This document shows positions 5,815 to 63,256 of a DNA stretch of 64,000 nt, piece by piece. Source of the DNA: Cenarchaeum sp. (GTDB lineage: Archaea; Thermoproteota; Nitrososphaeria; Nitrososphaerales; Nitrosopumilaceae); the NCBI GenBank assembly GCA_963692915.1, contig OY843584.1, forward strand, positions 160,001 through 224,000, in the 5' to 3' direction. Numbering within the stretch: position 1 is the stretch's first letter; each line of letters starts with the position of its first letter. The translations under genes and the position numbers were made by a program. The notes beneath the pieces were generated by a model. That model was not told where the DNA came from, searched no databases, and saw nothing but the letters and a program-made list of their open reading frames with translations.

Positions 5815-5926
5815 GTATGAGGTCAGCACCCTCTGCTCATTTGGCCAAATAGGCGTGATCCTGTCGATCTACTTGACACTTCGGCTCTTGTCTAGGCATG
5901 AACGTGCAGAAATGCTGACCTCATGC
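5815..5926 (+). repeat. ~112-bp dispersed element with terminal inverted repeats (MITE-like), copy 1
   Basis: GTATGAGGTCAGCA (5815-5828) / TGCTGACCTCATGC (5913-5926), 13/14 inverted match; internal similarity to copies at 29434, 31498, 44035, 62546, 63145. Confidence 0.75.
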
Positions 5927-6164
5927 GCGTGTGGCCTGCGGCCGTGCGCCATCCTCGAGCGCGAACCGCATGCCATGGACGGCATGACGGCCAGTCGCCG
6001 TACAGGGGCGGATCTTGACCAACTGGTTTTATAGGGACTGCTGGCTCGTTTGGGGCGATGAGCGGGGGTTATGGGGAGGTCGTTTGGCCTTCCGATCAGG
6101 CGGATTTGGGCCATTTTGGGGCAAAAAACCGGCCAAGAGTTATAAAGTACTTGTATGGTAGGGT

Positions 6165-6722
6165 GTGGTAATGAATGCATACGACGCAATACTGATGACG
6201 CTGCACGCCAACGACGAGCTGCTCGGCCCTGAGAGGGTCGGCGAGCGGCCAGTTGGGCGAACGGCAATGCAAAAGCTCATCTATTTTGAAACGCGCATCT
6301 TAAAGAGCGATATGTTCTTTAACGCCTACTATTATGGCCCGTTTAGCCCCGGCGTCTCTGAGGGTCTTGCGCGGCTAGGGGCGTTTGGATACGTGCGCGA
6401 GTACGTGCCGCCCTCGTCCTTCCTCGGGTATGAATACCACCTGACAAAGGACGGCAAGGAATTTGCCGCTGACCTGTCACAGAATGAGCCATATGCGAAG
6501 ATTAAGGATGTGGTAAAAACTTGTTCGGACTTTTGCGATCTCCGCCAGCTCGCACTGTCTTACGCGGCAAAGACGCACTTTCTTAGCAGCAAGCTCTACA
6601 AGAGCATGAACAAGTCAAACAACAACGACATTGCCGCATTGGGCAAAAATTTTGGTTGGGTGATAGATCCAAAAGATGTCCGTGATGGCAAAAAGCTGCT
6701 TCGGGCATTAAAACTTGACTAG
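6165..6722 (+). CDS. YwgA/DUF4065-like winged-helix protein (possible antitoxin or regulator)
   Basis: GRTAMQKLIYF...YYYGPFS motif; overlaps HD gene. Confidence 0.6.
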   Translation: MVMNAYDAILMTLHANDELLGPERVGERPVGRTAMQKLIYFETRILKSDMFFNAYYYGPFSPGVSEGLARLGAFGYVREYVPPSSFLGYEYHLTKDGKEFAADLSQNEPYAKIKDVVKTCSDFCDLRQLALSYAAKTHFLSSKLYKSMNKSNNNDIAALGKNFGWVIDPKDVRDGKKLLRALKLD

Positions 6723-7977
6723 CAATCCTGCAATAAGGCAGATACGTGATCCGCTCTATGGCATGATCGACATATCGCCAACCGAGAACGCCCTCATCAA
6801 CACGCAAACATTCCTGCGTCTTCACAGAATCAAGCAGCTCTCTCATGCCCATGTGGCATATCCGTCAGCTCTGCATACGCGATACGAACATTCGCTTGGA
6901 GCCATGCACATGGCAGGCACCATGTGCGAAAAACTCCACATCGAAAAAGAGAAAACGCAACTCGTGCGTCTTGCGGCGTTGCTGCATGATGTGGGACACG
7001 GCCCGTTTTCGCATCTTTTTGAATGTGTGCTGGAAGATGTCAATAACCTGGATGGATCTATCCACGAGCATATAACGAACATAATGATAAAAAATGATCC
7101 AGAAATTAAACAGATTTTGAGAAGTGATCGATTAAAAATTATTGAGCTTTTGCAATCGCTCAAGCCTAATGTCAGGAAAGACTGGCGTCTAATGTCTGAT
7201 ATTGTGTCTAGCAGTCTTGATGCGGACAAGATTGACTATCTTCAGCGTGATTCCTATCACCTGGGCGTCAACTATGGGAAATTTGACCTCGTGCGAGTAA
7301 TGAATACAATTTGCCCCACCCCGAACCAGGAGCGACTTGCTGTCCGCATCAAGGGTCTTCACGCTATGGAGGGCTATCGCCTAGCGCGCCATCTATTGAC
7401 AGCTCAGGTGTATGAACATCATGCCAGGCTTGCCGCAGACCAGATGTTCCTCCGTGCTCTCCATGAGGCCATTCACATAGAAAAAATACTGCCAGCAGAG
7501 CTCTTTCGAGTGTCCTCTAGATCATTCATGTCATTTTACAAGGCTCTTGATGACGACTCCATTGTAAACATGATAACTGCCGATTCTAGGTCCAAGGTGT
7601 CAAAAAAGATACTAGGTGATATTCGTGCTCGTCGTCTGCTCAAGAGGGTTTATGAATTAGATCCTGTTCTTCTAAAGGACAAATCTACCAAACGCATGAT
7701 GTTCTACTCCAAGGACAAGCTATCTACCGTGACCAATGATATCAGGAAGAAGATGCGGCTCAAAAAACATGAGCTGTTCGTGCACGAGTCATCCAACCTA
7801 TTCAAGCTGTATGGTGACCATGACATCCCATGCCTCGATAAAAATAATGACGTTCGCCACATGAACACTCTGTCGCCAATTCACGCAGATGAGGGAATTG
7901 TAATCCGTTATGTGTTTGGCCCCGAGAAAAAACGTGATCTTATCCGTGCAGAATTTGCGGCTCATAAATTCGTCTAG
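6715..7977 (+). CDS. HD-domain phosphohydrolase, SAMHD1/dNTP triphosphohydrolase-like (YwfO type)
   Basis: RLHRIKQL, HTRYEHSLG, LLHDVGHGPFSH, LDADKIDYLQRDS, VYEH. Confidence 0.88.
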   Translation: MTSNPAIRQIRDPLYGMIDISPTENALINTQTFLRLHRIKQLSHAHVAYPSALHTRYEHSLGAMHMAGTMCEKLHIEKEKTQLVRLAALLHDVGHGPFSHLFECVLEDVNNLDGSIHEHITNIMIKNDPEIKQILRSDRLKIIELLQSLKPNVRKDWRLMSDIVSSSLDADKIDYLQRDSYHLGVNYGKFDLVRVMNTICPTPNQERLAVRIKGLHAMEGYRLARHLLTAQVYEHHARLAADQMFLRALHEAIHIEKILPAELFRVSSRSFMSFYKALDDDSIVNMITADSRSKVSKKILGDIRARRLLKRVYELDPVLLKDKSTKRMMFYSKDKLSTVTNDIRKKMRLKKHELFVHESSNLFKLYGDHDIPCLDKNNDVRHMNTLSPIHADEGIVIRYVFGPEKKRDLIRAEFAAHKFV

Positions 7978-7990
7978 GCGACAAGACTCA

Positions 7991-9253
7991 TCACGTGGCT
8001 TTGGAGATCTCGTCCTTGCCGACATACTTGCGCAGCGGGGCAGGCACCGATATGCCCGAGTCTGTCCGGCAGTTCTCGACGATTGCGACAAGAACGCGCG
8101 TCGTGGCAACTAGCGTCGAGTTTAGCGTGTGGACATATTGCGTGTCCTCGTTGGTCTTGTCCCTAAAGCGCATCTTTAGCCGGCGCGCCTGGTAGTCTAG
8201 GCAGTTGGAGCACGAGACTGCCTCGCGGTACGCGCCCTGGCCGGCCATCCACGCCTCGATATCGTACGTCTTGGCCGAGACCTTGCCCATGTCGCCGCTT
8301 GAGAGCAGGACAGTGCGGTGCGGCAGGCCGAGCTCGCGGTAAAACTCCTCGGCGACGCCGAGCATCCTCTCGTGCTCGGCCCACGACTCCTCTGGCCTCG
8401 CAAACGCAAACTGCTCGACCTTGTCGAACTGGTGCACGCGAAATATTCCCTTTTGGTCGCGCCCGTGCGCGCCGGCTTCCTTTCTAAAGCACGCGCTCAC
8501 GCCGGCGTACCTGATGGGAAGCGATGCGCCCTCGAGTATCTCATCACGGTGCATTGCCGCCATTGCGTGCTCGGAGGTGCCGATCATGCACAGGTCCTGG
8601 CCCTCTATGGCGTATATCGAGTCCTCAAAGTCCTCGGCAATGACTGCGCCCTCCATCGAGTCGCGCTTTATCATGTATGGCGGCTGGATCGCAGTATAGC
8701 CGTGCGAGGACGCAAAGTCGATCGCAAAGGAGACTAGCGCGTGGTTTAGGAGGACCATGTCGCCCTTTAGATAGTAAAACCTGGCACCAGACACCTTTGC
8801 GGCCCTCTCAATGTCAACGAGGCCCATCTTTTCCATTATCGCGGCGTGGTCCCCCTCTGCGCGCCGTGGCTCGCCCCACGTTCGCAAGACGACATTGGCC
8901 GAGTCGTCCGGCCCGTCAGGCACAGACTCGTGAACCATGTTGGGCAGCGTCCTGGCAAGGCCCGCATACTTTTCATGCGCCTGCCGCTGCGCGCCCTCTA
9001 GTGTCTCTAGCCTTTCTGAGACGCCGCGCATCTCCTCGATCGGCTTTGCCGCGTCCCCGCCGCGTTTTTTTTCTGCGGCGACGGCGCGCCCGAGCTCGTT
9101 GCGGCGACGGCGCAGCTCGTCGGCCTCTGATGTTGCCTTGCGCCATGCGCCATCGGCGGCAACTAGCGCATCGAGATCATACTCGACGCTGCGCCTCCTT
9201 AGCATGTCTCGCACGTCATCGGGACGTTCGCGCACGATCCTGGGGTCTATCAT
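7991..9253 (-). CDS. serS: Serine--tRNA ligase
   Basis: N-terminal coiled coil, GTSE, FRKEAG, FRVHQFDKVE, SCSNCLDYQARRL. Confidence 0.97.
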   Translation of the reverse strand: MIDPRIVRERPDDVRDMLRRRSVEYDLDALVAADGAWRKATSEADELRRRRNELGRAVAAEKKRGGDAAKPIEEMRGVSERLETLEGAQRQAHEKYAGLARTLPNMVHESVPDGPDDSANVVLRTWGEPRRAEGDHAAIMEKMGLVDIERAAKVSGARFYYLKGDMVLLNHALVSFAIDFASSHGYTAIQPPYMIKRDSMEGAVIAEDFEDSIYAIEGQDLCMIGTSEHAMAAMHRDEILEGASLPIRYAGVSACFRKEAGAHGRDQKGIFRVHQFDKVEQFAFARPEESWAEHERMLGVAEEFYRELGLPHRTVLLSSGDMGKVSAKTYDIEAWMAGQGAYREAVSCSNCLDYQARRLKMRFRDKTNEDTQYVHTLNSTLVATTRVLVAIVENCRTDSGISVPAPLRKYVGKDEISKAT

Positions 9254-9492
9254 CCCTGCGTGGCCTCCAGCGCGGCCTGCGCGTGCGCGAGAACCTCGTC
9301 AACTGTCGCGACGAGACTCGGGATCGCCCCGCCGCCAACATCAATGCGCACGTCACTGCCGTCAATTGACATCTCCATCTCCTGACCCGGAGGAAAGGCG
9401 ACATTGTCTGGCGCAAGCGCGGCCATTACGGCCTCGGCGCCCTGCACCGACAGGTCAGTTATGCGAATCTGCACCCTGCACGCCGGAGACAT
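9250..9492 (-). CDS. pcc1: KEOPS complex subunit Pcc1
   Basis: ALAPDN motif, ~80 aa, conserved rps15-DHH-pcc1-serS order. Confidence 0.65.
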   Translation of the reverse strand: MSPACRVQIRITDLSVQGAEAVMAALAPDNVAFPPGQEMEMSIDGSDVRIDVGGGAIPSLVATVDEVLAHAQAALEATQG

Positions 9493-10867: not shown

Positions 10868-11310
10868 CACTCTAGCTGCGCAATGACGGACTTGTACTTC
10901 CACTTTTTTGGTATCCGCCCGATGCGCTTGTAGTATGTTGAGAGGCGGTGAACCTTTGCCTCTATGAGCTCCAGTGATCGCACGTTGCGCCTGTCGCCCT
11001 TGTGGACCTTTAGGTGCTTTTGGAGGCCGATCGCGGTCTTCACGATGCTTGCGAGATCCTCGGGCATCTCGGGCAGCATGTCATGGGCCGCGAGCGTCTC
11101 AGTCACGGTCCGGCCGGTGACTGGCTTTGCGAGCGGAATTGCGTGCTGGTCTCGCAGCCTCACGCCGATCTGGCTGGCCGTCATGCCGTCCTTTGCGTAC
11201 CTGACTATGGCCTCCTCGACCTCCTCCTTGTTGGCGTACTCGGGAGCCGTGGGATTGACGGGGCGAATCGAGTGGGCCTTGCCGTGGCGGTGCGAGTGTA
11301 TGCGTCCCAT
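10867..11310 (-). CDS. rps15: 30S ribosomal protein S15 (uS15)
   Basis: MGRIHSHRHGKAHS, SQIGVRLRDQH, HRLSTYYK. Confidence 0.96.
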   Translation of the reverse strand: MGRIHSHRHGKAHSIRPVNPTAPEYANKEEVEEAIVRYAKDGMTASQIGVRLRDQHAIPLAKPVTGRTVTETLAAHDMLPEMPEDLASIVKTAIGLQKHLKVHKGDRRNVRSLELIEAKVHRLSTYYKRIGRIPKKWKYKSVIAQLE

Positions 11311-13929: not shown

Positions 13930-14028
13930 GCGGGTATACTGTCTACTATTTTTGCCATCTCGCAGCGTCGGCTGCGATCATGGCCTGCCGGCGTGTCCTG
14001 CGATCAGCGCAGATCGGCGCGCCTACGC

Positions 14029-15120
14029 TGTTTTATACGAAAAGTAGTAGACTCACTCATTCGAGTCCACCTCCATCCACCTCGGGTTCTCCGCCCGGAC
14101 CCGCCCGTCGGCCCTGCGCCTCCTGTAGGCCAGCAGGGGCGTCTCGCCGCCCTTGATGTCCAGGGCGAAGTGGAGGCGCCTCTCGTTGTAGTACGCGATG
14201 AACTCGGGGACCCCGCCAAAGTGGCCGATCTCCGTCTCGAGCGTCTGGAAGAACCTCTCGACCTTGCCGTTGGTCTGGGGGTGGCGGACGCGCGCCATGA
14301 GGTGCGCTATGTCGCGGTCCAGCAGCTCCCGCTCGAAGAGCGTCGGCGTCCAGCTGCGGCTCGGCGTGCCGCGCCGGCTTGCCGTGAACTGCGTGCCGTG
14401 GTCCGAGAGGATCTGCGCCGGCGCGCCAAACATCCTGATCGCCTTTCGCAGCGCAAGCACGGAGTTTTCCGACGTGGCCTCGGCGAACACGCCAAAGCCC
14501 GTGACGCACCGCGACGCGTCGTCGAGGAACACTATGAGGTGCGAGCCCGCAAGTGGCCCGTATTTCATTATGTGCCAGTCCACGTGCCACAGCGCGCCGG
14601 AGTGCGCGCGCTCGAACCTGACCCACTTTCGCCTGCGCGACTTCGCCCGCGACCTCGTGACGAGCCCCTCCGCCAGCATGATGCGGTACACCGACCAGTA
14701 CGTTATTTTTGAGTTGTTGCCGCGCAGCCCCTCGGCCACGCGCACGACGCCGGCCGGCCGGTCGGCGTGCTCGCCGAGGACCTCGGCCACCTCGCCGTCG
14801 GTGACGTCCCTGCGCGGCCTTCCCATCGGCCGCGGCTCCGGCGGCGCGCCGGTGCGCCGGCAGTGCGCGCGAAGCCTGTACGACCACGCCCTGGAGATCC
14901 CCAGCTCGCGCGCCACCTCCTCGGCGCTCCGCGTCGCCAGCGTCCTGGCCACGTACCGGAGCGCCCTGTCGTCAAGCCTCCTGACCGGCATGGCGCGCCG
15001 GCGGCGGAGCCCCCCAAACGTATGTTTCGGCAGCCTGCCGGATCCCGGGGCGCCCCCGGGGCTCCCGGATCTGCGCCCGGCAAGCATTCCTGCCCAGTCT
15101 ACTACTTTTCGTACAAGGCA
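14029..15120 (-). mobile_element. IS481-family insertion sequence, copy 1 (1092 bp), 15-bp target duplication
   Basis: 25-bp imperfect TIRs TGTTTTATACGAAAAGTAGTAGACT / AGTCTACTACTTTTCGTACAAGGCA; TCGGCGCGCCTACGC at 14014-14028 and 15121-15135. Confidence 0.95.
14053..14991 (-). CDS. IS481-family DDE (rve) transposase
   Basis: N-terminal HTH, WHVDW, DDASR, SDHGTQF, PQTNGKVERF, YNERRLH. Confidence 0.93.
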   Translation of the reverse strand: MPVRRLDDRALRYVARTLATRSAEEVARELGISRAWSYRLRAHCRRTGAPPEPRPMGRPRRDVTDGEVAEVLGEHADRPAGVVRVAEGLRGNNSKITYWSVYRIMLAEGLVTRSRAKSRRRKWVRFERAHSGALWHVDWHIMKYGPLAGSHLIVFLDDASRCVTGFGVFAEATSENSVLALRKAIRMFGAPAQILSDHGTQFTASRRGTPSRSWTPTLFERELLDRDIAHLMARVRHPQTNGKVERFFQTLETEIGHFGGVPEFIAYYNERRLHFALDIKGGETPLLAYRRRRADGRVRAENPRWMEVDSNE

Positions 15121-15173: not shown

Positions 15174-15824
15174 ATGGTCTGGCTAAGACGCTGTACGCAC
15201 TACCTCTTCATCGTGGTAGTTGCCGTAAACTCCACACTGCTGACAATCAACGCAGGAGACTATATCTTCTACACTGATTGGGCGTGGACGTCGTTCGTGG
15301 TATTCTCGATATCGCAGACGCTCATGCTCGTCGTCGGTGCGGCGTACTACCTGACATTCACTGGAGTGCCGGGAACTGCGACGTACTATGCGCTGATAAT
15401 GACAGTCTACACGTGGATAGCAAAGGGCGCATGGTTTGCCCTCGGCTACCCGTACGACTTCATCGTCACACCGGTATGGCTCCCATCTGCAATGCTGATG
15501 GACCTTGCATACTGGGCGACAAAGAAGAACAAGCACTCGCTGATTCTGTTTGGTGGTGTGTTGGCCGGCATGTCGTTGCCACTGTTCAACATGGTGAACC
15601 TGATAACGGTGGCCGACCCGCTGGAGACTGCGTTCAAGTACCCGCGACCCACACTTCCCCCCTACATGACACCAATAGAACCGCAGGTGGGCAAGTTCTA
15701 CAATAGCCCAGTCGCACTGGGCGCTGGAGCCGGGGCCGTGCTGTCCGTGACTATGGCCGCGTTGGGCTGCAAGCTCAACACGTGGACATATCGCTGGATG
15801 GCCGCCTGGTCGAAATGGGACTGA
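15174..15824 (+). CDS. amoA: Archaeal ammonia monooxygenase subunit A
   Basis: MVWLRRCTHY, AGDYIFYTDWAWTS, WMAAWSKWD; 216 aa. Confidence 0.99.
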   Translation: MVWLRRCTHYLFIVVVAVNSTLLTINAGDYIFYTDWAWTSFVVFSISQTLMLVVGAAYYLTFTGVPGTATYYALIMTVYTWIAKGAWFALGYPYDFIVTPVWLPSAMLMDLAYWATKKNKHSLILFGGVLAGMSLPLFNMVNLITVADPLETAFKYPRPTLPPYMTPIEPQVGKFYNSPVALGAGAGAVLSVTMAALGCKLNTWTYRWMAAWSKWD

Positions 15825-15837
15825 TACGCGTCATACC

Positions 15838-15949: not shown

Positions 15950-16804
15950 GTGTTGGCACAGCAGCACGCGTGTGAGGCGGCCGGACCCTTCGTAAAGTGG
16001 GCAGGCGGAAAGAGGCAGCTACTCGCCGAGCTGCGCGCCCGTGCACCGCACAAGTTTGGCATGTACTATGAGCCGTTCGTCGGCGGCGGCGCGCTTGCCT
16101 TTGAGATACTCTCGTCCCGTCCAGGCGCGCGCTGCTCGCTCTCTGACCTCAACTCTGATCTTGTCCTGGCGTATGTCACCGTGCGTGACCGCGTCGATGA
16201 CCTTGTCCGCTCACTCCGGCGCCATGCTGACGCGTACGTGCAGGATCCAAAGGCATACTATTACGCGACGCGCGCGGCGACTCCGCGCACGCAGGTGGAA
16301 AAGGCATCGCGCCTCTTGTTCCTCAACCGCACGTGCTTTAACGGCCTGTATAGGGTCAACTCTAGCGGCAAGTTCAATGTCCCGATGGGCGGATACGACA
16401 ACCCCAATATTGTCAACGAGGCTGCGCTGCGTGCCGCAAGCCGCACACTGGCCTCGGGCAACGTCTCGATCCAGTGCGCCGACTTTGGCGCGGTTCTACG
16501 CACGGCAAAACGCGGGGACTTTGTCTACTTTGATCCGCCATACCAGCCGGTGAGCCGCACGGCCGCATTCACAAGCTACACCAGCGCGTGCTTTGGGGAG
16601 CGCGACCTGGAGCGCCTCGCCGGTGCGTGCGAGGAGCTTGCCGACCGTGGGTGCCACGTGCTCGTCTCCAACTCGGACACAGGCGAGGTTCGATCCGTGT
16701 TTGGCCACGGATGGAGCGTCGATGAGATCGGCGCGTACCGCCGGATCAACTCGGATGGCGCGCGAAGGTCTGGCCACACGGAACTGCTGATCAGGAACTA
16801 TTGA
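15950..16804 (+). CDS. dam: Dam-type DNA adenine methyltransferase
   Basis: KWAGGK, EPFVGGG, FNGLYRVN, FDPPY. Confidence 0.9.
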   Translation: MLAQQHACEAAGPFVKWAGGKRQLLAELRARAPHKFGMYYEPFVGGGALAFEILSSRPGARCSLSDLNSDLVLAYVTVRDRVDDLVRSLRRHADAYVQDPKAYYYATRAATPRTQVEKASRLLFLNRTCFNGLYRVNSSGKFNVPMGGYDNPNIVNEAALRAASRTLASGNVSIQCADFGAVLRTAKRGDFVYFDPPYQPVSRTAAFTSYTSACFGERDLERLAGACEELADRGCHVLVSNSDTGEVRSVFGHGWSVDEIGAYRRINSDGARRSGHTELLIRNY

Positions 16805-24981: not shown

Positions 24982-25303
24982 GCCGCACCGCTACCCCGTG
25001 TCCCGTTAATCACTCTTTGCGGCTCCGCGCCTCCCACCTGCGGCGTGTCAGATCGACCCGTGGGGATTATGGCCTGCAGTCGGCGCGCTAGGGTGCGGCG
25101 CGCAGGCTGTGCGCGACGGTGGCGTGCCGCCGTGCCGGTCTGTGCCGCGTGTGCCAGGATGAACGTCATGGCCAACTCTATGTCCAGTGAGCTTTCGAAC
25201 GGGTCGCCAGCGGCGCCTGCCTCGCCAGCCGTCCCCATGCGCGCCCACCTGACTGCCCAAAACCCTTGATCCCCTTATATATGGGCCAAATAGAGGCGTG
25301 GCA

Positions 25304-29433: not shown

Positions 29434-29527
29434 GTATGGAATCTGCACCCGTGTCTGCTCATGCTTGGGCAGGCACCGCAGCGGCAAGTGGATCGGCAGG
29501 CTCGGCGCCTATTTGAGCAGGCGGACA
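29434..29527 (-). repeat. Dispersed ~112-bp element, copy 2 (reverse orientation, one end truncated)
   Basis: Reverse complement TCCGCCTGCTCAAATAGGCGCCGAGCCTGCCGATCCACTTG...AAGCATGAGC aligns to copies 1 and 5; TIR-like GTATGGAATCTGCACC at 29434. Confidence 0.7.
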
Positions 29528-29531
29528 TTGC

Positions 29532-30285: not shown

Positions 30286-30876
30286 CTATGCGCGCGCTAG
30301 ATCCTCGCGCACGTTCTTGCCCCGTGTCTCTCTGATGTACTTGGATATTTTCATTGCAGACCCTTGAATCCACTGGATATCGGAGATATGGACGGTGTCT
30401 TTTTGCAGGTTGCTTATCATTTGATCGACTATACCGAGCGGCTGTGTCCTGAAGCTGCGCTCCACCCTGGCGCTGACCACTGCGCTCTTTATGCTATAGA
30501 CGTGCATTATGAACATCACCCTGTGGTGATCTGGAACAGTTGCCCTTTGTGGTTCTATAGACGACTTGAAGAGTGCCTTTATGGTACGCTGGCACATCTT
30601 GTGCAGGATTGATAGTGACTGGAGCACAGAGTCAGTCTCCTCGCCATACCGAAACCTCTCTGCCTGTTGGGTTGTCGTGTAGCTGAACACGCCTAGCACG
30701 TATGCATAGTATCCGCATATGACGGCCACCCCTAGCGCCATCAGGGACGTTAGCAGCGAAATGGCGCCATAGGCGCTTCCTGTTGCGATCAAGGTGCTCC
30801 AATAGATCGCCACTAGCCCGCCGCCTATGACTCCGGCAGGAAGCATTCCCAGGGTGAGAATTCTTGATATTCTCAT
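30286..30876 (-). CDS. Hypothetical membrane protein (2 N-terminal TM helices)
   Basis: 196-aa ORF coupled by ATGA overlap to upstream gene; visibly lower GC. Confidence 0.6.
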   Translation of the reverse strand: MRISRILTLGMLPAGVIGGGLVAIYWSTLIATGSAYGAISLLTSLMALGVAVICGYYAYVLGVFSYTTTQQAERFRYGEETDSVLQSLSILHKMCQRTIKALFKSSIEPQRATVPDHHRVMFIMHVYSIKSAVVSARVERSFRTQPLGIVDQMISNLQKDTVHISDIQWIQGSAMKISKYIRETRGKNVREDLARA

Positions 30877-31448
30877 GGCTGCGCACCACCCGTTCCGAGA
30901 AGCGACCCCGCAATGTCGTCATACACCTTGGGCACGCGCTCTTGGTTGATTATGAACCAGCCGCGCGCCTCCTCGATCATCTCCTCGCGCGTGAGCGTCC
31001 TGGACTCTGCGCGCATCTCGTCCTCAATGTAGCACAGCGTCGAGGCGATCTCGAGCCACTCGACGTCATCGATGCGCTCGCGCGCGAGCCTGACAAACTC
31101 TTCGCTCCTGTCCCACTCTTGCGCGGGCTCTGAGTGCAGGTCCTTAAGCCCCCAGATGTCAACCTCGAACCCAAACGCGTGCGGGCTGGTCATGCCCCAG
31201 TCATAGACATACCTCTCCAGGTTGGGGCAGCCAAGCCTGTGCTTTGCAAAGTAGACGAGTATGTTCAGGGCCAGGCGCGTGGAGTTGCTCTTCCAGCTCT
31301 GATACATGTCGCACGGGATGACGCTGGCATCGCAGAGGACGTGGAGTATGGGAACCGGGGATCCGGGGACGATCACGCCCCCGTTGGGGATCGACTCAGT
31401 CGGCACCATCCTGTACCCCTCGGCATTGACGTGTCCCTGATCCTGCAT
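30873..31448 (-). CDS. Hypothetical protein, divergent YwgA-like; paralog B
   Basis: Paralog of 29532-30131; TATA-like TTATAA upstream. Confidence 0.65.
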   Translation of the reverse strand: MQDQGHVNAEGYRMVPTESIPNGGVIVPGSPVPILHVLCDASVIPCDMYQSWKSNSTRLALNILVYFAKHRLGCPNLERYVYDWGMTSPHAFGFEVDIWGLKDLHSEPAQEWDRSEEFVRLARERIDDVEWLEIASTLCYIEDEMRAESRTLTREEMIEEARGWFIINQERVPKVYDDIAGSLLGTGGAQP

Positions 31449-31497: not shown

Positions 31498-31556
31498 GTA
31501 TGGGGCAGGCACCACTGACCATTCGGCCAGATGGGCATTGATCCTGCCGGTGCGCC
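31498..31556 (+). repeat. Dispersed element, copy 3 (left half only, adjoining IS481 target site)
   Basis: GTATGGGGCAGGCACC...ATTCGGCCAGATGGGCATTGATCCTGCCGGT aligns to the family. Confidence 0.55.
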
Positions 31557-31576
31557 AGCATTATCGTCGGCCACGC

Positions 31577-32668
31577 TGTTTTATACGAAAAGTAGTAGAC
31601 TCACTCATTCGAGTCCACCTCCATCCACCTCGGGTTCTCCGCCCGGACCCGCCCGTCGGCCCTGCGCCTCCTGTAGGCCAGCAGGGGCGTCTCGCCGCCC
31701 TTGATGTCCAGGGCGAAGTGGAGGCGCCTCTCGTTGTAGTACGCGATGAACTCGGGGACCCCGCCAAAGTGGCCGATCTCCGTCTCGAGCGTCTGGAAGA
31801 ACCTCTCGACCTTGCCGTTGGTCTGGGGGTGGCGGACGCGCGCCATGAGGTGCGCTATGTCGCGGTCCAGCAGCTCCCGCTCGAAGAGCGTCGGCGTCCA
31901 GCTGCGGCTCGGCGTGCCGCGCCGGCTTGCCGTGAACTGCGTGCCGTGGTCCGAGAGGATCTGCGCCGGCGCGCCAAACATCCTGATCGCCTTTCGCAGC
32001 GCAAGCACGGAGTTTTCCGACGTGGCCTCGGCGAACACGCCAAAGCCCGTGACGCACCGCGACGCGTCGTCGAGGAACACTATGAGGTGCGAGCCCGCAA
32101 GTGGCCCGTATTTCATTATGTGCCAGTCCACGTGCCACAGCGCGCCGGAGTGCGCGCGCTCGAACCTGACCCACTTTCGCCTGCGCGACTTCGCCCGCGA
32201 CCTCGTGACGAGCCCCTCCGCCAGCATGATGCGGTACACCGACCAGTACGTTATTTTTGAGTTGTTGCCGCGCAGCCCCTCGGCCACGCGCACGACGCCG
32301 GCCGGCCGGTCGGCGTGCTCGCCGAGGACCTCGGCCACCTCGCCGTCGGTGACGTCCCTGCGCGGCCTTCCCATCGGCCGCGGCTCCGGCGGCGCGCCGG
32401 TGCGCCGGCAGTGCGCGCGAAGCCTGTACGACCACGCCCTGGAGATCCCCAGCTCGCGCGCCACCTCCTCGGCGCTCCGCGTCGCCAGCGTCCTGGCCAC
32501 GTACCGGAGCGCCCTGTCGTCAAGCCTCCTGACCGGCATGGCGCGCCGGCGGCGGAGCCCCCCAAACGTATGTTTCGGCAGCCTGCCGGATCCCGGGGCG
32601 CCCCCGGGGCTCCCGGATCTGCGCCCGGCAAGCATTCCTGCCCAGTCTACTACTTTTCGTACAAGGCA
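31577..32668 (-). mobile_element. IS481-family insertion sequence, copy 2 (1092 bp), 16-bp target duplication
   Basis: Same TIRs and identical ORF translations as copy 1; TTATCGTCGGCCACGC at 31561-31576 and 32669-32684. Confidence 0.95.
31601..32539 (-). CDS. IS481-family DDE transposase
   Basis: Translation identical to 14053-14991. Confidence 0.93.
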   Translation of the reverse strand: MPVRRLDDRALRYVARTLATRSAEEVARELGISRAWSYRLRAHCRRTGAPPEPRPMGRPRRDVTDGEVAEVLGEHADRPAGVVRVAEGLRGNNSKITYWSVYRIMLAEGLVTRSRAKSRRRKWVRFERAHSGALWHVDWHIMKYGPLAGSHLIVFLDDASRCVTGFGVFAEATSENSVLALRKAIRMFGAPAQILSDHGTQFTASRRGTPSRSWTPTLFERELLDRDIAHLMARVRHPQTNGKVERFFQTLETEIGHFGGVPEFIAYYNERRLHFALDIKGGETPLLAYRRRRADGRVRAENPRWMEVDSNE

Positions 32669-41927: not shown

Positions 41928-42352
41928 CGCCGCGCGCGCGTGGGGCACGTTTGTATAAAAGTGCTTGAGTTGTGTGTTGGGCATATGCCGCGCATCTGAC
42001 CCTATGAGTTGTAGATAGATTCGATATGCAGCATGGCAAGCATTATCTGCCTCATGTGGGCTACACTTACACCCCGCTCCTATCGTGGCATATCCGCACA
42101 CTGGAGATTTTGATGGCCGAGACCATGAATTGTTTATTTGTTCACACCAAACACCAGAAATAATCTCTATCTATATAGCTACATACTCCGCCCCCAATGC
42201 CGATCATGTAAATCATATACAACGTATGCGTGAAGCCAATGTGAGATTACATGTGTAGGTTGTTCACAACACTTGATGTCACTAACAGGACATAATAATC
42301 TAAGTTTAGTTTTGACGTTGCACACATAAATTCTCATCTTCAAACTGATATT

Positions 42353-43838
42353 TTACCTGATCTTCAACTCACGCAGGCGCGTAATTAGATACTCCATGGT
42401 CTTTTTTCCTTTTATTCTATTACAGCTGCTACACAACAACTGTAAATTTTCGTCATCATCGACCCCGCCTCTAGCTTTTGGTATTATGTGATCCACATCC
42501 ATGAGTCTGATCTCTGTCCATTTTTTGCAACCCTTGCATACTCCCTCTTGTCTACCATACAGGATACACTTAATGTCCCTAGAGCGTTTACCTACTCGTG
42601 TTGGAATATCTGTTCGGTGTATGATCTTATCAATGTATTTGGAAATGCCTATTTCTCGCTCCATTCTAATTTTCATCAAATCAGCTGCCTTTGATGACTT
42701 ATCAATTCCGATCCAGTTTCGTTTTAATTTTTCTGCAGCTGCACATGCTGTAGCACATCCACAAAAAGGATCAAGTACCAAATTGTCTGTGTCGGATGAT
42801 GCCTTTATTATGCATCAATAGTTCTAATGGTTTCTGTGTGGGATATCCAAGATCTTCGTTCCCTTTGACATTTCCAATATCTGCCCATATGTCGCCCATA
42901 TTTTCACCTTTGTATGAATCGAAATAAATCTTTCTTGTTAATTTTCGTTTAGAGATGGTTTTTTTAATAGTTTTCCCATTCGCTAATTTTTTCGTTATCT
43001 TTTTTTCAATTAAATCAATTGAAAAATTTCCCTTCTGGTATTCTTCTTCTAATCTGTCTTTAGACAGTCTCCAACCTGTCGGGTAGGGATTTTTAAATCC
43101 TCGCCATTCATAACACAAATTTGGTCTAGCGCCTTGCGATCGTGAACGAAATATGTGGGCTGAGTTGTCTTTCCAACGCCTACCATCTGAATCGACATTT
43201 GGGAATTCCTCTCTAATTTTTTCTTCCGTATCTAGATTGACTGTTATTTTTGGAATATTGAAAATAGACTTCCGAGAATTCTTTGCATAAAACAAAATGA
43301 CATCATGATTAGAGCCTAATTTTCTTGGTTTGTGTTGACTACCCTTGTTTCCTGTTGTTCGTTTCCAAACTATCTCATTTTTAAAATTTGTGCGTTTGAA
43401 TACGGCATCTAAAACACTTTTCAGATAATGGCTTATAGTTGGATCACAATGCAAGTAAATTGAACCGCTGTCTTTTAAAATTCTGCGCATTTCCAGTATT
43501 CTGACTGCCATGTAAATTAAATATGCTTTGACGCTTTTTCCTCCAACTATGCCAGATGATTTTAGTACTTCGTATAATCCTGCATTGTCGTGCTGAATCT
43601 CGCCCCACCATGCCTCATCAATATCCTTTAATGTCCAAACATCTGTAAATTCAGCACCTGTTGATTCTGTGCCTAATGGTGCCGCATAGTCATGATCTGA
43701 TTTAAACGGTGGATCGAGGTATATTAAATCAAACAATTCGTCGGGTAATCCTCGCATTATGTCTAGATTATCGCCGGTAAAAATGGTTCGATTTTTTAGG
43801 CTATTGCCCCCCCCCCCAACTAGATTACTGTTCTTCAA
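42353..43838 (-). pseudogene. Beta-class N4/N6 DNA methyltransferase fused to C-terminal HNH endonuclease, split by a frameshift near 42812
   Basis: LIYLDPPF and YPTQKPLELL in one frame; IIKASS..VLDPFCGCAT and DHIIP...CSSCNRIK in another; AT-rich; G11 tract at 43807-43817. Confidence 0.85.
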
Positions 43839-44034
43839 TTGTCACAAAGGCCCCCTCGATACTGTGAAATGTCTTGTTGCAAGACTGGCGCAAATAAAAT
43901 TTAGGTTCTAAAATATGTAAAAAATTCATATTTGTGTTTTTATTGCTAATCAAATGCAGTGACCCGTGTACTTTGCCCATCTGTGTGGCACTCAGTCTCT
44001 ATATCTTGCTATATTAACATACTCTGTCTTATTA

Positions 44035-44146
44035 GCATGAGTTCGGCACTTCTCTGTTTATTGGGCCAAACGGGTGTGATCCTGTCGATATACTTACCTC
44101 GGCATGTCTGTCTGAGCACGAACGAGATGTGGTGCCACGCTCACAT
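44035..44146 (+). repeat. Dispersed ~112-bp element, copy 4
   Basis: GCATGAGTTCGGCACT...GGCCAAACGGGTGTGATCCTGTCGAT...GTCTGAGCACGAACG...GGTGCC; same length as copies 1 and 6. Confidence 0.75.
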
Positions 44147-57983: not shown

Positions 57984-58189
57984 GGCATCATCACAGGAGC
58001 TCCGATGCGCATTGGTGCGGATGTCGCACATGGAATTGCCATATTCGGCACTATTTTACCCCTTATCGAATGAATCCGTCATTTTTATCCGAATGCCGCA
58101 GGTCAATTTTCTCTCTAGTCCCGGTTGGTCCATGATCACAAGATAATCTTATAACCCGAGGGGTTTGACGCCCTGCCGGTCAGCTCATT

Positions 58190-60832
58190 TTGGACACAAC
58201 CCAGACCCAAACCCCGATCGAAGCGATCAGAAAACGCAACGGGGAGACGGCCACCTTTGATCGCACAAAGATCACCAACGCAATAGACAAGGCGTTCGCC
58301 GCAGTTGGCCGCAGCGATCCAGATGAGGCCGAGCGCCTGACTGAGAAGGTCATCAAAAAGCTCTACGTGCAGGGCTTCTCGGTCGCAAAACCTAGCGTGG
58401 AGGACATCCAGGACATGGTCGAGTCGACGCTCATCGAGAACGAGCACAGCACGGTGGCCAAGGCGTTCATACTGTACAGGCACGAGCGCCGCAAGGTTCG
58501 CGACGAAAAGATGCGCGTCCTCAACACAACATCACTGGATCCCGTGTCCTCGGACTTTGATGTCAACTCGCTAAGGGTTCTTGCGTCACGATACCTGCTG
58601 CGCAACAACCGCAGCGAGATAACCGAGTCGCCCTCGCAGATGTTCAGGCGCGTCGCCGTGCTCGTGAGCGTAGCCGATGTCTTGCATGACCCACGAATCT
58701 TTGAGCGCGACGGCAGGCACACGCAGAGCGTGGACGAGGCAGAGTCGTACATATCAAAGCTTGACAGCTTTGACCAAAAATTCCGCATAGGCGAGGATTA
58801 TCTCAACAAGTGGCACTTTAGGGCGCTCATAAAACACTATATCGCGCTTGCGCGCACGGGCTCGATGAAGATAGGCTTCAAGGATCTCCTGACGATGCTC
58901 GCGAGCAAAAAGTTCGACTCGTGCGCATCAAAGATTGACGAGTACTATGAGCTCATGGTGTCGCAGGACTTTTTGCCAAACTCTCCGACCATGATGAACG
59001 CCGGATGCAGACTCGGCCAGCTCTCAGCATGCTTTGTGCTTGACATGCCCGACAACATGGAGGGGATCATGAAGTCGACGGCTGATGCGGCACTCATATT
59101 CCAGTCCGGCGGCGGTGTCGGCATCAACTATTCGCGCCTTAGACAGGAGGGCGACATTGTCGCATCGACGTCCGGCGTGGCATCAGGCCCCGTCTCTTTC
59201 ATGAACATCATAAACACGGTGACCGAGGTGGTAAAGCAGGGTGGAAAGCGCAGGGGCGCCAACATGGGCATAATGGAGTCGTGGCATCCGGACGTTGAAA
59301 AGTTCGTGACAAACAAGACAAAGCCCGGCGTCCTTGAGAACTTTAACGTGAGCGTCGGGATTTGGGCCGACTTTTGGAAGGCCCTCGTGGGTGGCGGCGA
59401 CTCAAAGTATGTCCTGCGCAGTCCCCGTGACAGGTCTCCTGTGGGGGAGATCAGCGCGCAGCACCTCCTAGACTCGATCGCACAGTCAGCATGGAAGAGC
59501 GCCGAGCCGGGCCTCATATTCTTTGATCAGATAAACAAGCACAACGTCTTTGCCAAGGCCCGCGGCGAGCCGCTAAGGGCGACAAACCCGTGCGGTGAGC
59601 AGAGCCTCTACCCGTACGAGTCATGCAACCTCGGCTCGATAAACCTCGCCAACCTTGTCAAGCGTCGTGCTGACGGCGAGTATGACTTTGACTGGCAGCG
59701 CTACGAGGAGGCCATCCGCAAGACGACAAGGTTCCTCGACCACATCATCGACGTCAACCTCTACCCGATCACCGAGATCGACAAGGCCTCAAAGGACTCG
59801 CGCCGCATCGGCCTCGGTGTCATGGGCGTCGCAGACCTCCTCTACAAGCTGCGCATACCATACAACTCAAAGGAGGGCTATGACATGCAGTCAAAGCTAG
59901 CCGAGGCCCTGACGTACTATTCGATGGAGGAGAGTGTCGCGATAGCAAAGTCGCTTGGAGCATTCCCGCTGTGCTCAAAGACCGAGTATGCCGAAGGCAA
60001 GATACCTGTCGCCGCATACTATGAAAAGCCAAAGGAGCTCCACACGTACGACTGGGATGCGCTCATCGAAAAGATAAAGGTTCATGGCATACGCAACGTG
60101 CTCACGACGACTGTGGCGCCGACGGGCACGCTCTCGATGATAGCACAGTGCTCCAACGGCATGGAGCCAATGTTTGCGCTCGTCTTTGAAAAGCGCGTCA
60201 CAGTCGGCAAGTTCCTCTACGCAAACAAGGTTCTCGAGGGAGTCTTGCGCGAGAACGGCATGTACTCTGATGAGACGCTCGCGGCCGTGGCGTCCAACTA
60301 TGGCTCGATGCGCGGTCTTGACTCGGTTCCCGAGTGGATGCAGAACGTGTTTGTGACCGCAATGGACATACACTGGTCTGACCATCTCCTCGCGCAGGCC
60401 GTCTGGCAGCAGTGGATAGGCAACGCGATCGCAAAGACGATAAACATGCCGTATGACGTGACCGTGGATGACGTAAAGGCCGCGTACCTCCTGGCGCACG
60501 AGCTCGGCCTAAAGGGCATCACGATATACCGTGACGGCTCGCGCCACACGCAGGTTCTCCACATGACTGACGAGGGCGCCGAGAAAAAGTTCGACGTGCG
60601 CCCAAGCGAGTTTGTCACCGAGTTCGTCTCTGCGAACATAAAGAACGCGTACGTGCGCGAGCAGGTCGACAAGGCACTAGAGCTGCGCGCACCCTCCGAG
60701 CGCGCCCTCGAGACGGCTCCAACAGAGGTGCCCGAGGAGTCGCTCTGCCCGACGTGCAAGAACACGCTCGTCTTTGCCGAGGGCTGCAACATCTGCATAG
60801 AGTGCGGCTTTAGCGGCTGCACGTCCGGCTAG
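58190..60832 (+). CDS. nrdJ: Adenosylcobalamin-dependent (class II) ribonucleotide reductase with ATP cone
   Basis: PNSPT, QLSACF, GGKRRGANM, TNPCGEQ, CNLGS, APTGT, LKGITIYRDGSR. Confidence 0.95.
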   Translation: MDTTQTQTPIEAIRKRNGETATFDRTKITNAIDKAFAAVGRSDPDEAERLTEKVIKKLYVQGFSVAKPSVEDIQDMVESTLIENEHSTVAKAFILYRHERRKVRDEKMRVLNTTSLDPVSSDFDVNSLRVLASRYLLRNNRSEITESPSQMFRRVAVLVSVADVLHDPRIFERDGRHTQSVDEAESYISKLDSFDQKFRIGEDYLNKWHFRALIKHYIALARTGSMKIGFKDLLTMLASKKFDSCASKIDEYYELMVSQDFLPNSPTMMNAGCRLGQLSACFVLDMPDNMEGIMKSTADAALIFQSGGGVGINYSRLRQEGDIVASTSGVASGPVSFMNIINTVTEVVKQGGKRRGANMGIMESWHPDVEKFVTNKTKPGVLENFNVSVGIWADFWKALVGGGDSKYVLRSPRDRSPVGEISAQHLLDSIAQSAWKSAEPGLIFFDQINKHNVFAKARGEPLRATNPCGEQSLYPYESCNLGSINLANLVKRRADGEYDFDWQRYEEAIRKTTRFLDHIIDVNLYPITEIDKASKDSRRIGLGVMGVADLLYKLRIPYNSKEGYDMQSKLAEALTYYSMEESVAIAKSLGAFPLCSKTEYAEGKIPVAAYYEKPKELHTYDWDALIEKIKVHGIRNVLTTTVAPTGTLSMIAQCSNGMEPMFALVFEKRVTVGKFLYANKVLEGVLRENGMYSDETLAAVASNYGSMRGLDSVPEWMQNVFVTAMDIHWSDHLLAQAVWQQWIGNAIAKTINMPYDVTVDDVKAAYLLAHELGLKGITIYRDGSRHTQVLHMTDEGAEKKFDVRPSEFVTEFVSANIKNAYVREQVDKALELRAPSERALETAPTEVPEESLCPTCKNTLVFAEGCNICIECGFSGCTSG

Positions 60833-60895
60833 GCCGCGCGTGGCCCACACCCAATCGCAGCGTTTTTACAAGTATGCTGATCGCCCCGTGCGCAC

Positions 60896-62014
60896 ATGAG
60901 GACAGCCACGCTCGTCGTCGCCCTTGCAGTCTCGGCGGCCACGCTTGCGGCAGGAATTGCGTTCATCCTGGCTCCAGGCATGTCCACAGACGACGAGCCT
61001 ATCGCCGGCCAGGGCACGCCAGCAGACATGGCGCTGCCGGACAACTTTGGCGTCATCGTCAACACGCCGGGTCGCGAGGCGAGCATACTGGAGCTCAACT
61101 CGCTCTATGCCAAGGTCGCCGGCCTGGGAGCCACGCGCAGCAACGTGTACGTGTTCTGGAACGCCCTTGAGCCCTCGCCGCGCGAGTACGCCTGGGCCCA
61201 GACGGATGCGATCATGACGATGCACGAAAGGCACGACCTTGCGGCGACACTCTTCTTTTCGCTAGTCAACGGGCGCACGCTCGGGCCGCTGCCCGACTGG
61301 ATGGGGCACCCGACGCTTGATGCCATACCGCCCGATGACGTCTCATCGGCGATCGGCGCAATCCTTGCGAGATATCCGAGAATCGACACCGTCGTCATGG
61401 CCGGCGAGGCTGACTCGCACTTTGAGCGGTATCCGGGCATGCTCGATGCGTACAATGACCTCTTTGAGGATGTTCGCGACGACCTTGCCGCCGAGCACCC
61501 CGACGTCATGGTGGGAAACGCCATCTCCCTTGACCGCATCATCAACCGCGGCAATGAGCGGATCGTCTCGGATCTTGCAGCGGGGGACTTTGTCGCCTTT
61601 ACGTACCGGCCGCTAAACCTGCTCAACGAGGTCTCGCGCACGCCACAGGATGCCATCGGCGACATGGAGACGATGCTTCGCATCACCGGCGGCCAGCGCG
61701 TCGCGCTGCTTGAGGCTGGATGGAGCTCGTCTGCGGACATTGGCGGGGATCCCGCAAGCCAGGCCGAGTTTGCCGTCGCGCTCTCCGAGCTCGCATCTTC
61801 AGAGCCCCGCCTCGAGTTCGTCACGTGGTACCGGCTCCATGACAGGCCAGACGGGTCGTGCACAGTCGGCCCGCTCGATGATGACACCTCGCTGCTGAGC
61901 ACCGACGGGGGCACGTACGCCGCATCAGGCCTTGGGAGCTATATCTGCGGCGCCGGCCTCCTTGACGTTGATGGTGCGCCAAAGCCGGCATGGGGCGCAC
62001 TTGGCGGCCGCTGA
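60896..62014 (+). CDS. Membrane-anchored glycoside-hydrolase-like TIM-barrel protein
   Basis: N-terminal TM; WNALEP, LLEAGWSS, GLLDVDGAPKPAW. Confidence 0.6.
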   Translation: MRTATLVVALAVSAATLAAGIAFILAPGMSTDDEPIAGQGTPADMALPDNFGVIVNTPGREASILELNSLYAKVAGLGATRSNVYVFWNALEPSPREYAWAQTDAIMTMHERHDLAATLFFSLVNGRTLGPLPDWMGHPTLDAIPPDDVSSAIGAILARYPRIDTVVMAGEADSHFERYPGMLDAYNDLFEDVRDDLAAEHPDVMVGNAISLDRIINRGNERIVSDLAAGDFVAFTYRPLNLLNEVSRTPQDAIGDMETMLRITGGQRVALLEAGWSSSADIGGDPASQAEFAVALSELASSEPRLEFVTWYRLHDRPDGSCTVGPLDDDTSLLSTDGGTYAASGLGSYICGAGLLDVDGAPKPAWGALGGR

Positions 62015-62146
62015 GGCGCAGGCGGACATGCTGTTCTGCCGTGACATACTGCGGCCATGACCTCAGGGCTGATCCTGCCCTGGCACGTCCGGGATTGCGC
62101 ATGGGGAAAAAACAGTTAATTGCTGCGCGCCTGCGCCTGCGCCTGC

Positions 62147-62219
62147 GCGGTCATAGTATAGCCTGGTAGTACGCTGGCCTTCCAAGCCCGTCACCCGGGT
62201 TCGAATCCCGGTGACCGCA
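62147..62219 (+). tRNA. tRNA-Gly(TCC)
   Basis: GCGGTCA/TGACCGC acceptor stem, loop CTTCCAA, GGTTCGAATCC. Confidence 0.93.
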
Positions 62220-62261
62220 CCCACAACACTTAACGCACCCCCAGCGTGCGCACACACCCTG

Positions 62262-62654
62262 ATGCGCCAGAACCGAAAGGCAGTCGCCCTTGAGAGGATG
62301 CGCACGCTCGTGGCCAATGCGTCGGCAAACCTGCGCGCCGAGCCTGCCCTGGCCGAGCGGCAGGCGGCCCTGGCATGGAGGATATGCACGCACACGCGGA
62401 CGCGCATGCCATACGAGCTTCGCATGGCGTTCTGCCGCAAGTGCAAGAGCTTTGTGGGGTATGGCCAGCGCGTGCGCATACGCGTCGGCAACGGCGAGGT
62501 TCGCCTGACCTGCGGCCTCTGCGGGCACGTGCGCCGCAAGGTGCTGCATGGGGTCAGCACCCCTGGCTCCGCCTGCTCAAATGGGCGCGATCCCGCCGAT
62601 CCATCTGGCACAAGGGCGCCAGACGGGACAGCGGGCCTGCCGCGCCCTGGATAG
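62262..62654 (+). CDS. rnp4: RNase P protein component 4 (Rpp21) with repeat-derived C-terminal extension
   Basis: ALERMRTL, FCRKC, RVRI, TCGLCG..RR. Confidence 0.85.
   Translation: MRQNRKAVALERMRTLVANASANLRAEPALAERQAALAWRICTHTRTRMPYELRMAFCRKCKSFVGYGQRVRIRVGNGEVRLTCGLCGHVRRKVLHGVSTPGSACSNGRDPADPSGTRAPDGTAGLPRPG
62546..62615 (+). repeat. Dispersed element, copy 5 (inside the 3' end of rnp4; right end degenerate)
   Basis: GCATGGGGTCAGCACCCC...TCCGCCTGCTCAAATGGGCGCGATCCCGCCGATCCA; TCCGCCTGCTCAAAT identical to copy 2. Confidence 0.7.
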
Positions 62655-62856
62655 AGCCGCCACGCGCACGTTCCTGGCAGATGGCCGGCCATGTGGTCAT
62701 GCCGTCACGTCTGGTGCCTGCAGTGAAACGGTGTGCAGTCGATCCGCCACGGCGCCGGGGACACCCGCTGGCCACTCCGGGCACATGTCATTGTCAATCC
62801 CAACATCAGGAGGATACACAACTACAATGGAGACCGGGCGGGTCATTCACATCCCA

Positions 62857-63093
62857 TCAAAACTCCACCCTTACACTTATGTTGCTGACGTCCCTGCCCG
62901 CCAGCTCGATGAGCTCGTCCATGCGTGCCACGGCGTCGTCGGCGGAGGCAACCTCGCGCTCCCCGATATGGTGATATGCCGCATACGGCGAGGCGTCGCT
63001 CACCTTGCAGTCGTGCATCAGGGTCTTTATGCGCGCACACGCCTCCTTGTCGTCCTCGTTGCGGCATAAAACGCGAAACCATGCCTTTGCCAT
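62857..63093 (-). CDS. Small hypothetical protein
   Basis: 78-aa ORF with protein-like composition and AT-rich box upstream. Confidence 0.45.
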   Translation of the reverse strand: MAKAWFRVLCRNEDDKEACARIKTLMHDCKVSDASPYAAYHHIGEREVASADDAVARMDELIELAGRDVSNISVRVEF

Positions 63094-63144
63094 GACACAC
63101 CGGCTAGCATGCACGTGATATATTACTGATTAGGCGGATCCCGC

Positions 63145-63256
63145 GTATGAGATCAGCATCCTGCTGCCCACTTGATCTAGGCGCGATCCTGCCGGTCTGC
63201 CTCTGCCGAGTCAGCGCCTGTCTAGGCACGAACGAGCCGTGGTGCTGAGCTCGTAC
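63145..63256 (+). repeat. Dispersed ~112-bp element, copy 6
   Basis: GTATGAGATCAGCATC / GGTGCTGAGCTCGTAC inverted ends (13/16); internal TAGGCGCGATCCTGCC and TGTCTAGGCACGAACG. Confidence 0.75.

Follow-up and report, generated by a model that had tools for sequence, protein, structure and literature searches.

What are the six related sequences of about 112 bp that lie dispersed over a 64-kb stretch of a Cenarchaeum genome, and what ties several of them to promoters and to strain-variable DNA? The stretch, called the window here, is the whole of the DNA analyzed (64,000 bp) and occupies positions 160001-224000 of a genome of 1,644,826 bp (59.4% GC, 99.86% complete). The Cenarchaeum host is an ammonia oxidizer, because archaeal AmoA is encoded at window positions 15174-15824. 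A preliminary description, made from the letters of the window, had left three options for the six copies (c1 to c6), namely a miniature inverted-repeat transposable element (MITE), a single-strand recombination site resembling repetitive extragenic palindromes (REP) or attC sites, and a structured non-coding RNA (ncRNA) family. From our analysis, the repeats are very probably MITEs, that is, non-autonomous relatives of an insertion sequence (IS) of the IS66 family which has a single open reading frame (ORF) and resides in the same genome, and in nearly all cases they occupy a narrow promoter-proximal position, ∼19 bp upstream of the TATA box of a gene. Coordinates of the copies, partner elements, and neighboring features are collected in Table 1.

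The family is not confined to the window. In nhmmer searches of the genome, a profile built from a first seed of four copies gave 37 matches at E<1e-3, and a later profile of 19 near-full genome copies gave 41 non-overlapping matches at E<0.01 (21 near full length), which places the family far beyond chance similarity, the doubt that the preliminary description had itself raised. All six window sequences were recovered by the genome profile at the places first described; c1, c4, and c6 were within the profile seed and c2 within the first seed, while c3 and c5 were recovered independently because they were in neither. Once extended to the model ends, c1, c4, and c6 are exactly 112 bp long, as had been claimed, and the span of c2 in the first four-copy profile was 29435-29530 (model start about 18/29). 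The MITE copies of the genome are 111-114 bp long and without an ORF, with a mean column identity of 78% across the family. The alignments bear out the inverted ends, first given as GTATGAGGTCAGCAC(C), as well as the shared internal blocks; in them, 15-bp consensus ends (GTATGAGGTCAGCAC / GTGCTGACCTCATAC) are perfect in several copies and perfect palindromes (ATTTGGCCAAAT and GATC..GATC) lie inside the element. For comparison we used a genome of the same genus (G001; 2.0 Mb, 99% complete); it aligns collinearly with the window at 93-99% identity, interrupted by 14 discontinuities. BLAST gave at least 35 matches to the family in G001, and none of the other 39 relatives searched carries it. The shorter copies c2, c3, and c5 are all common to G001, and c3 is truncated there as well; these three are truncated fragments and not variants of a shorter element.

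A search for a transposase with matching ends, proposed in the preliminary description, was run and led to the partner element. A genome scan for the 15-bp end that tolerated as many as three mismatches turned up two places where perfect ends are paired at a distance of about 1.5 kb; these pairs delimit two intact IS copies that are 89% identical to each other; truncated IS copies are also present in the genome. Each intact copy has one ORF of at least 300 amino acids (476 and 481), and both ORFs match Pfam DDE_Tnp_IS66 (PF03050) at 5.8e-37 and 4e-37, plus zf-IS66, and score 224 and 216 bits with NCBIfam transpos_IS66 (NF033517) against a cut-off of 180. These two ORFs are the only DDE_Tnp_IS66 matches genome-wide. 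The MITE and the IS have in common a terminal inverted repeat of 15-16 bp (GTATGAGGTCAGCAC), about the first 60-73 bp at the left end (51/60 identical over positions 1-60), and the last 17 bp at the right end (17/17).

Members of the IS66 family are known for an 8-bp target duplication, ends beginning with GTA, and, in the canonical three-ORF form, the accessory ORFs tnpA and tnpB; the single-ORF subgroup is what we take to be the ISBst12-like elements. The partner IS has the 8-bp duplication and the GTA ends, and each copy has a single ORF in place of the accessory set. In its domains (DDE_Tnp_IS66 and zf-IS66), duplication length, ends, and size (∼1.5 kb), it appears consistent with the single-ORF subgroup and differs from canonical IS66 in being without tnpA or tnpB and in having few close relatives. 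Only three protein clusters are related to the transposase at 71% identity or more; the next named relative is 42% identical (source annotation: Cenarchaeum symbiont of sponge), and other named IS66 transposases are at most 32% identical.

Traces of transposition were then sought in the flanks of the 23 complete elements in which both ends are present (21 MITEs and the 2 ISs). The flanking octamers agree in 8/8 positions in seven elements, in 7/8 in two, and in 6/8 in one, where the null for 8/8 at random positions is 3e-5 (binomial 5e-27). Within the window only c1 has a possible target duplication, as had been noted, and genome-wide perfect 8-bp duplications are common. The c1 duplication is 7/8, GCGCGTGG (5807-5814) / GCGTGTGG (5927-5934). 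Empty sites in relatives, also on the list of proposed checks, turned out to be reciprocal. The c1 site is empty in G001, where one copy of the 8-mer remains and the flanks align at 97% and 90% with an 8-bp overlap, and a G001-specific copy at 1688898 with a perfect duplication corresponds to an empty site here at ∼1402264-1402270. A single metagenome contig joins 5810 to 5931, a skip of 120 bp (112+8), with a short side of 26 letters that makes it weak. The c1 insertion is young, and the MITE family is old yet was recently active. The identification as a MITE follows from the partner IS, the target duplications, and the empty sites taken together, and these features that mark such an element were found here, i.e., terminal inverted repeats, a duplication of fixed length, small ORF-less bodies in many copies, an autonomous partner, and filled and empty sites.

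Where the elements sit proved to be strikingly regular. Gene calls were self-trained and crude (1388 genes, 82.5% coding), and a simple all-A/T hexamer served as a proxy for the TATA box. Where an element boundary faces a gene start (40 cases), the start codon is 46-51 bp away in 13 (null 2.2%). Outward from the element end, the flanks hold a purine/A-rich stretch, then a TATA-like box starting 17-21 bp from the end, and then, 22-27 bp on, the start codon. A genome-wide A/T peak lies at -31 to -25 from start codons, and therefore the boxes are promoters, and the genes behind them mostly leaderless. In 18/23 complete elements (16/21 if a trio of paralogous copies is counted once; null 9.7%), the first all-A/T hexamer on one side or both has an offset of 17-22, and boxes at 17-22 stand on both sides in 6/23 (null 0.2-0.3%). 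At offsets 20-25 the A/T content reaches a maximum of 70-82%, whether the profile is taken over the 61 boundaries of this genome or over the 48 of G001. Either element end can face the promoter, and copies occur in both orientations. Within the window, two copies had been said to lie just upstream of ribosomal-protein promoters, and they do, c1 at the S3Ae box and c6 at the S19e box; c6 in fact sits between two divergent promoters. The intact end of c2 faces the start of a malate/lactate dehydrogenase gene 50 bp off, and the ORF at 30873-31448 (-) starts 49 bp from that of c3.

The same position is used by an element of another kind. An IS481-like element of 1092 bp, with an rve transposase of 344 amino acids (best NCBIfam match IS481 at 167 bits, where the cut-off is 224), occurs genome-wide in about 10 full copies; 15-18-bp duplications flank 9/10, and an A/T box lies at offset 16-25 on one side in 10/10. 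Its ends were compared with those of the repeat and are unlike, in line with the preliminary description. In three of the ten IS481-like copies, the duplication takes in the first 4-5 bp of a neighboring IS66-type end; these copies therefore came later and entered the interval that separates the IS66-type end from the TATA box. With these IS481-like copies taken out, the original box offsets of the IS66 element at 508130 and the MITE at 1419481 come to 18 and 20. The target center is ∼14-16 bp upstream of the box whether the cut is of 8 bp or of 15-18 bp. The IS481-like copy on the amoA side is absent in some metagenome contigs (joint 14012 to 15120, skip 1107; runs X1, X5), and the metagenome contigs are better evidence for this polymorphism than for that of c1. 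In G001, an element of 2.5 kb (227732-230264; 67% GC, perfect 17-bp inverted repeats, 8-bp duplication, 666-amino-acid ORF) is separated from c6 by 4 bp and from the S19e box, downstream of it, by 6 bp. Searching this genome for its inverted repeat gave 3 matching ends only, and neither it nor a 1.1-kb insertion in the G001 copy of c6 has a BLAST match to the IS66 or IS481-like elements. Tentatively, then, the stretch just upstream of the transcription factor B (TFB) recognition element (BRE) and the TATA box could be a host-determined integration hotspot for unrelated DDE transposons, here and in G001. Its users would be the IS66-type IS with its MITE, the IS481-like element, and perhaps a third element, of which one example was seen. 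A position common to unrelated transposases points to a host feature and is less likely the property of one enzyme; the likeliest causes are DNA bent or exposed by the TATA-binding protein (TBP) and TFB, or histone-free promoter DNA.

A mechanism can be proposed on this basis. The DDE transposase encoded by the IS (476 and 481 amino acids) would bind the shared ends in trans, as these ends and the duplication length suggest, and a staggered target cut of 8 bp would leave the 8-bp direct duplications. Insertions would land, or survive, almost only where ∼11-12 bp separate the 8-bp target from the TATA box downstream of it, at a point immediately upstream of the BRE. With either end toward the promoter, the element would then stop ∼48-51 bp short of the start codon of a leaderless gene. 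We infer that this pattern reflects target choice rather than survival only.

Several observations weigh against the reading of the repeats as trans-mobilized MITEs with a fixed insertion position. The center of the MITE (about positions 62-96, ∼35 bp) is without a clear match in either IS, and therefore the direct parent is a related variant and not one of these two copies. Among the complete elements, 13/23, including c4 and c6 (flanks matching 1/8 each), have no recognizable duplication (at most 5/8), which fits age or rearrangement; when reciprocal flanking 8-mers were sought among 14 duplication-less copies, only the left flanks of the three paralogous copies matched. The promoter pattern leans on the crude gene calls and the A/T-hexamer proxy, and the G001 copies behind the second A/T profile are partly orthologous, so that not all are independent. 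Finally, purifying selection in a compact genome contributes, and it is not fully separable from target choice by genomes alone.

Could such selection account for the position entirely? Insertion might occur anywhere, without any target choice, and only copies just outside the BRE/TATA box might survive in a compact genome. Several copies do lie in divergent spacers too short to offer another free place (c6, 51 and 48 bp from two starts; the copy at 526558, 33 and 49 bp), and an unrelated IS481-like element at the same position is what host constraints would predict. Nevertheless, where no box is nearer, the box is at 17-22 in 17/17 observed positions against 11.3% in the null. Among the measured offsets 24/39 are at 17-22 and none at 23-53, despite a null that puts ∼3 times more positions at 23-53 than at 17-22 even in spacers of at most 200 bp; the chance of 24/24 is about 1e-14 to 1e-16. 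The distance is also kept in long spacers, as at the copy at 117024 (48 and 151 bp), the copy at 1470334 (48 and 91 bp), and c1 (50 bp to the start at 5764 and 238 bp on the other side), and young copies with perfect duplications obey the position rule. Survival as the sole cause is thus unlikely.

The fixed distance to the BRE/TATA box might instead be functional, the repeats serving as upstream regulatory modules with the palindromes ATTTGGCCAAAT and GATC..GATC as candidate protein-binding sites. The presence of perfect palindromes inside the element speaks in favor of this, as do three paralogous genes that were duplicated with an element 36 bp upstream of the called start. Since either end faces the promoter, however, no internal site is held at a fixed distance. 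Different fragments occupy the same position (the 3' part in c2, the 5' part in c3), the unrelated IS481-like element keeps the same distance, and insertions are polymorphic between close genomes with the empty promoter intact. We therefore regard a role as regulatory modules as rather improbable.

The association with accessory DNA, from which the idea of a cassette-recruiting site had arisen, was tested within the window against G001 only. Three of the 14 discontinuities arise where c1 or one of the two IS481-like copies is present in one genome and absent from the other, and 4/11 of the other structural differences touch a family copy, where 0.2-0.5 would be expected by length. One is the 2.68-kb segment present only in G001, which lies between two divergent promoters with its bounding MITEs inverted and is represented here by 232 unrelated bases. 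At the methylase/HNH segment, which is replaced in G001 by 1278 unrelated bases (48% GC), c4 is the right border. The G001 orthologue of c6 carries the 1.1-kb insertion, with the 2.5-kb element alongside. Borders of strain differences fall at varied points, i.e., 11 bp inside the right end of c4, where G001 homology resumes, near element position 35 in c6, and beyond the element in other cases. The HD-gene segment (window 6285-8006), which starts 358 bp from c1, is ∼72% identical to G001 between flanks of 90-97%; its place is conserved, and the allele itself has diverged strongly. Because G001 has the segment there and the c1 site is empty, c1 inserted after the HD segment was in place. The statement that copies border foreign DNA accordingly held in part; it stood for c4 at the edge of the strain-variable methylase/HNH segment and for the pile-up of G001 insertions at c6, and it fell for c1, which came after the HD segment, and for c2 and c3, which are common to G001 together with the genes between them at 96% identity. 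The island association is real but partial.

Does this make the repeats REP/attC-like single-strand recombination sites that recruit gene cassettes? The excess of structural differences at copies and the one copy-bounded segment are what such a site would produce. Against it, no Y1 (RAYT/IS200-type) transposase was found in the genome (PF01797, 0 matches; the same search was positive in 6/14 control genomes), and the 8-bp duplications, which REP elements would lack, are typical of DDE transposition and come with a DDE partner. Furthermore, c1 joined a divergent segment that was already there, and the c2/c3 block is conserved in G001. Unrelated elements (IS481-like, 2.5-kb) insert at the same promoter-proximal places, and the island association would thus follow from the shared hotspot; a promoter-upstream insertion hotspot explains it better than cassette recruitment. 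Recombination sites of this type are very improbable.

The last option, an ncRNA family whose stem and inner hairpins are kept for RNA function, was examined by counting pairs in a 33-sequence alignment from both genomes, over a 17-pair terminal stem and three inner hairpins. A long hairpin is foldable, with 85.9% of cells paired, and transcription is possible as many copies lie beside promoters. However, the shuffled mean is also 85.9% (249/500 shuffles as high), shuffles score 0.136 for covariation where the repeats score 0.135 (284/500 as high), and pairs changed on both sides number 7 where 7.7 are expected. The G-U compatibility of the end mismatches and the compensatory pair in copy 4, which had suggested RNA, are therefore within chance; G-U cells equal A-C cells (98 each; 43 and 54 in the terminal stem), without strand preference. 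RNAalifold (-8.09 kcal/mol) does not choose the terminal stem, and at gathering thresholds Rfam gave no match for the repeats in the window, where it found two tRNAs only (ARAGORN gives the same two). Hairpin arms decay independently, as expected of DNA repeats. Given, in addition, both orientations relative to the neighboring promoter and the DNA-level mobility evident from target duplications and empty sites, an ncRNA family is scarcely credible.

Some further observations concern the distribution of the copies and their effects on genes. The ORF for the RNase P protein Rpr2/Rpp21 (62211-62654) runs into c5 in its 3' tail, so that approximately the last 36 codons, past the end of the Pfam domain (residue 105), are transposon-derived; the same is seen in G001. 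Copies are clustered, with a median spacing of 18.5 kb against 27.5 kb simulated (P 0.018). They also show a strand bias, 14 plus and 1 minus at 200-900 kb versus 10 plus and 16 minus elsewhere (Fisher 8e-4, with bins picked post hoc), and no clear correspondence with the extremes of cumulative GC skew (0.63 and 1.42 Mb) is seen. Three paralogous genes of 275 amino acids (genome 1368000-1378000), for which Pfam gave no family, are preceded by MITE copies at 1369576, 1373530, and 1376324, each 36 bp upstream of the called start and with near-identical left flanks. Here the duplication took in gene, promoter, and MITE together. ORFs for Dam-type N6-adenine methyltransferases (MethyltransfD12 1e-53; Dam 3e-9) are found close to stretches rich in mobile elements, at window 15950-16804 and in the genome stretch 1368000-1378000 (local 8432-8971), and GATC palindromes are found inside the MITE.

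Table 1. Repeat copies and associated features. Positions are those of the window unless a genome is named; copies are labeled MITE after the reading favored in the text, and the target duplications are listed in the order of the two IS66-family ISs.
Feature	Position	Strand	Details
c1, full-length 112-bp MITE	5815..5926	+	profile 5815-5925, model 1-112, E 6e-31
c2, 3' MITE fragment	29434..29530	-	profile 29435-29519, model 29-112, E 7e-13
c3, 5' MITE fragment	31498..31559	+	model 1-63, E 5e-4
c4, full-length diverged 112-bp MITE	44035..44146	+	profile 44035-44145, model 1-112, E 4e-21
c5, 5' MITE fragment	62546..62630	+	profile 62547-62630, model 2-85, E 4e-9
c6, full-length 112-bp MITE	63145..63256	+	profile 63145-63255, model 1-112, E 9e-22
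Intact IS66-family IS	genome 405121-406649		1529 bp; target duplication ctcatgcg
Intact IS66-family IS	genome 508130-509673		1544 bp; target duplication tatgggca
S3Ae ORF	5153..5764	-	Ribosomal_S3Ae 1e-52
TATA-like box ttataaa, S3Ae gene	5790..5796	-	18 bp from c1 left end, 25 bp from TTG start 5764
TATA-like box (+ strand: atatatta), ORF 62857-63093 (-)	63118..63125	-	starts 20 bp from c6 left end
TATA-like box tttataa, S19e gene	63275..63281	+	starts ~18-19 bp from c6 right end
S19e gene	63305-63763	+	Ribosomal_S19e 3e-43; start codon 48 bp from c6
IS481-like copy	14029..15120	-	16-bp duplication; upstream of amoA; absent at site in G001
IS481-like copy	31577..32668	-	18-bp duplication; 17 bp beyond c3; absent at site in G001
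Nested IS481-like copies	genome 676173-677264, 507027-508118, 1418378-1419469		duplications include first 4-5 bp of adjacent IS66-type end
Variable low-GC segment (38.7% GC)	42002..44135	.	N6_N4 methylase and HNH ORFs and most of c4
G001-only 2.68-kb segment	G001 186096-188777, opposite window 25024-25255		bounded by MITE copies

MITEs that arose from bacterial or archaeal ISs by internal deletion are well known, e.g., the SM elements of Sulfolobus and the Correia elements of Neisseria. The present family resembles these IS-derived MITEs in being small, ORF-less, dispersed, mostly intergenic, and polymorphic, with the terminal inverted repeats and duplication length of a resident IS; it differs in its IS66-family partner, its ammonia-oxidizing archaeal host, and its narrow position relative to the TATA box. 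To our knowledge, so narrow a position relative to TATA boxes is not a standard feature of MITEs. Closer parallels to the insertion rule are found elsewhere. In eukaryotes, Ty3 inserts at RNA polymerase III start sites through TFIIIB, and Tf1 inserts at RNA polymerase II promoters. Like these, the elements described here stand at a fixed short distance from a binding site of the TBP/TFB (TFIIB/Brf) type, independent of target sequence, and leave the gene intact. Ty3 and Tf1, however, are long terminal repeat retrotransposons with integrases tethered by host factors, whereas the transposases here are of the prokaryotic DDE type, insertion is upstream of the BRE/TATA box, and any tethering is hypothetical. 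IS231A has a structural target preference, with the target flanked by bendable A/T tracts. Common to both are a short target without a strong consensus and A/T-rich DNA at a fixed distance, here on both sides in 6/23 elements; the differences are that, in a genome of 59% GC, the A/T tracts are TATA boxes and the position is common to two unrelated transposases.

In full-text literature searches, with supplementary tables outside their reach, neither this family nor an archaeal insertion rule anchored to promoters was found described, and the portions available of PMC13343696 and PMC6563490 make no mention of IS66-derived MITEs. The element itself is ordinary as a MITE, and the insertion rule is the more novel reading.

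In essence, the MITE family accounts for some 40 intergenic repeats, for several of the differences between strains, and for the altered tail of one gene. If the insertion rule is true, transposon steering would mark promoters at base-pair accuracy in an uncultivated organism, and it would explain why strain-specific DNA gathers in divergent promoter spacers. Archaea share TBP/TFB-type initiation with eukaryotes, and the rule, if true, would offer a testable case of integration guided by the initiation complex or by chromatin in archaea, a counterpart of the promoter-tethered integration of eukaryotes.

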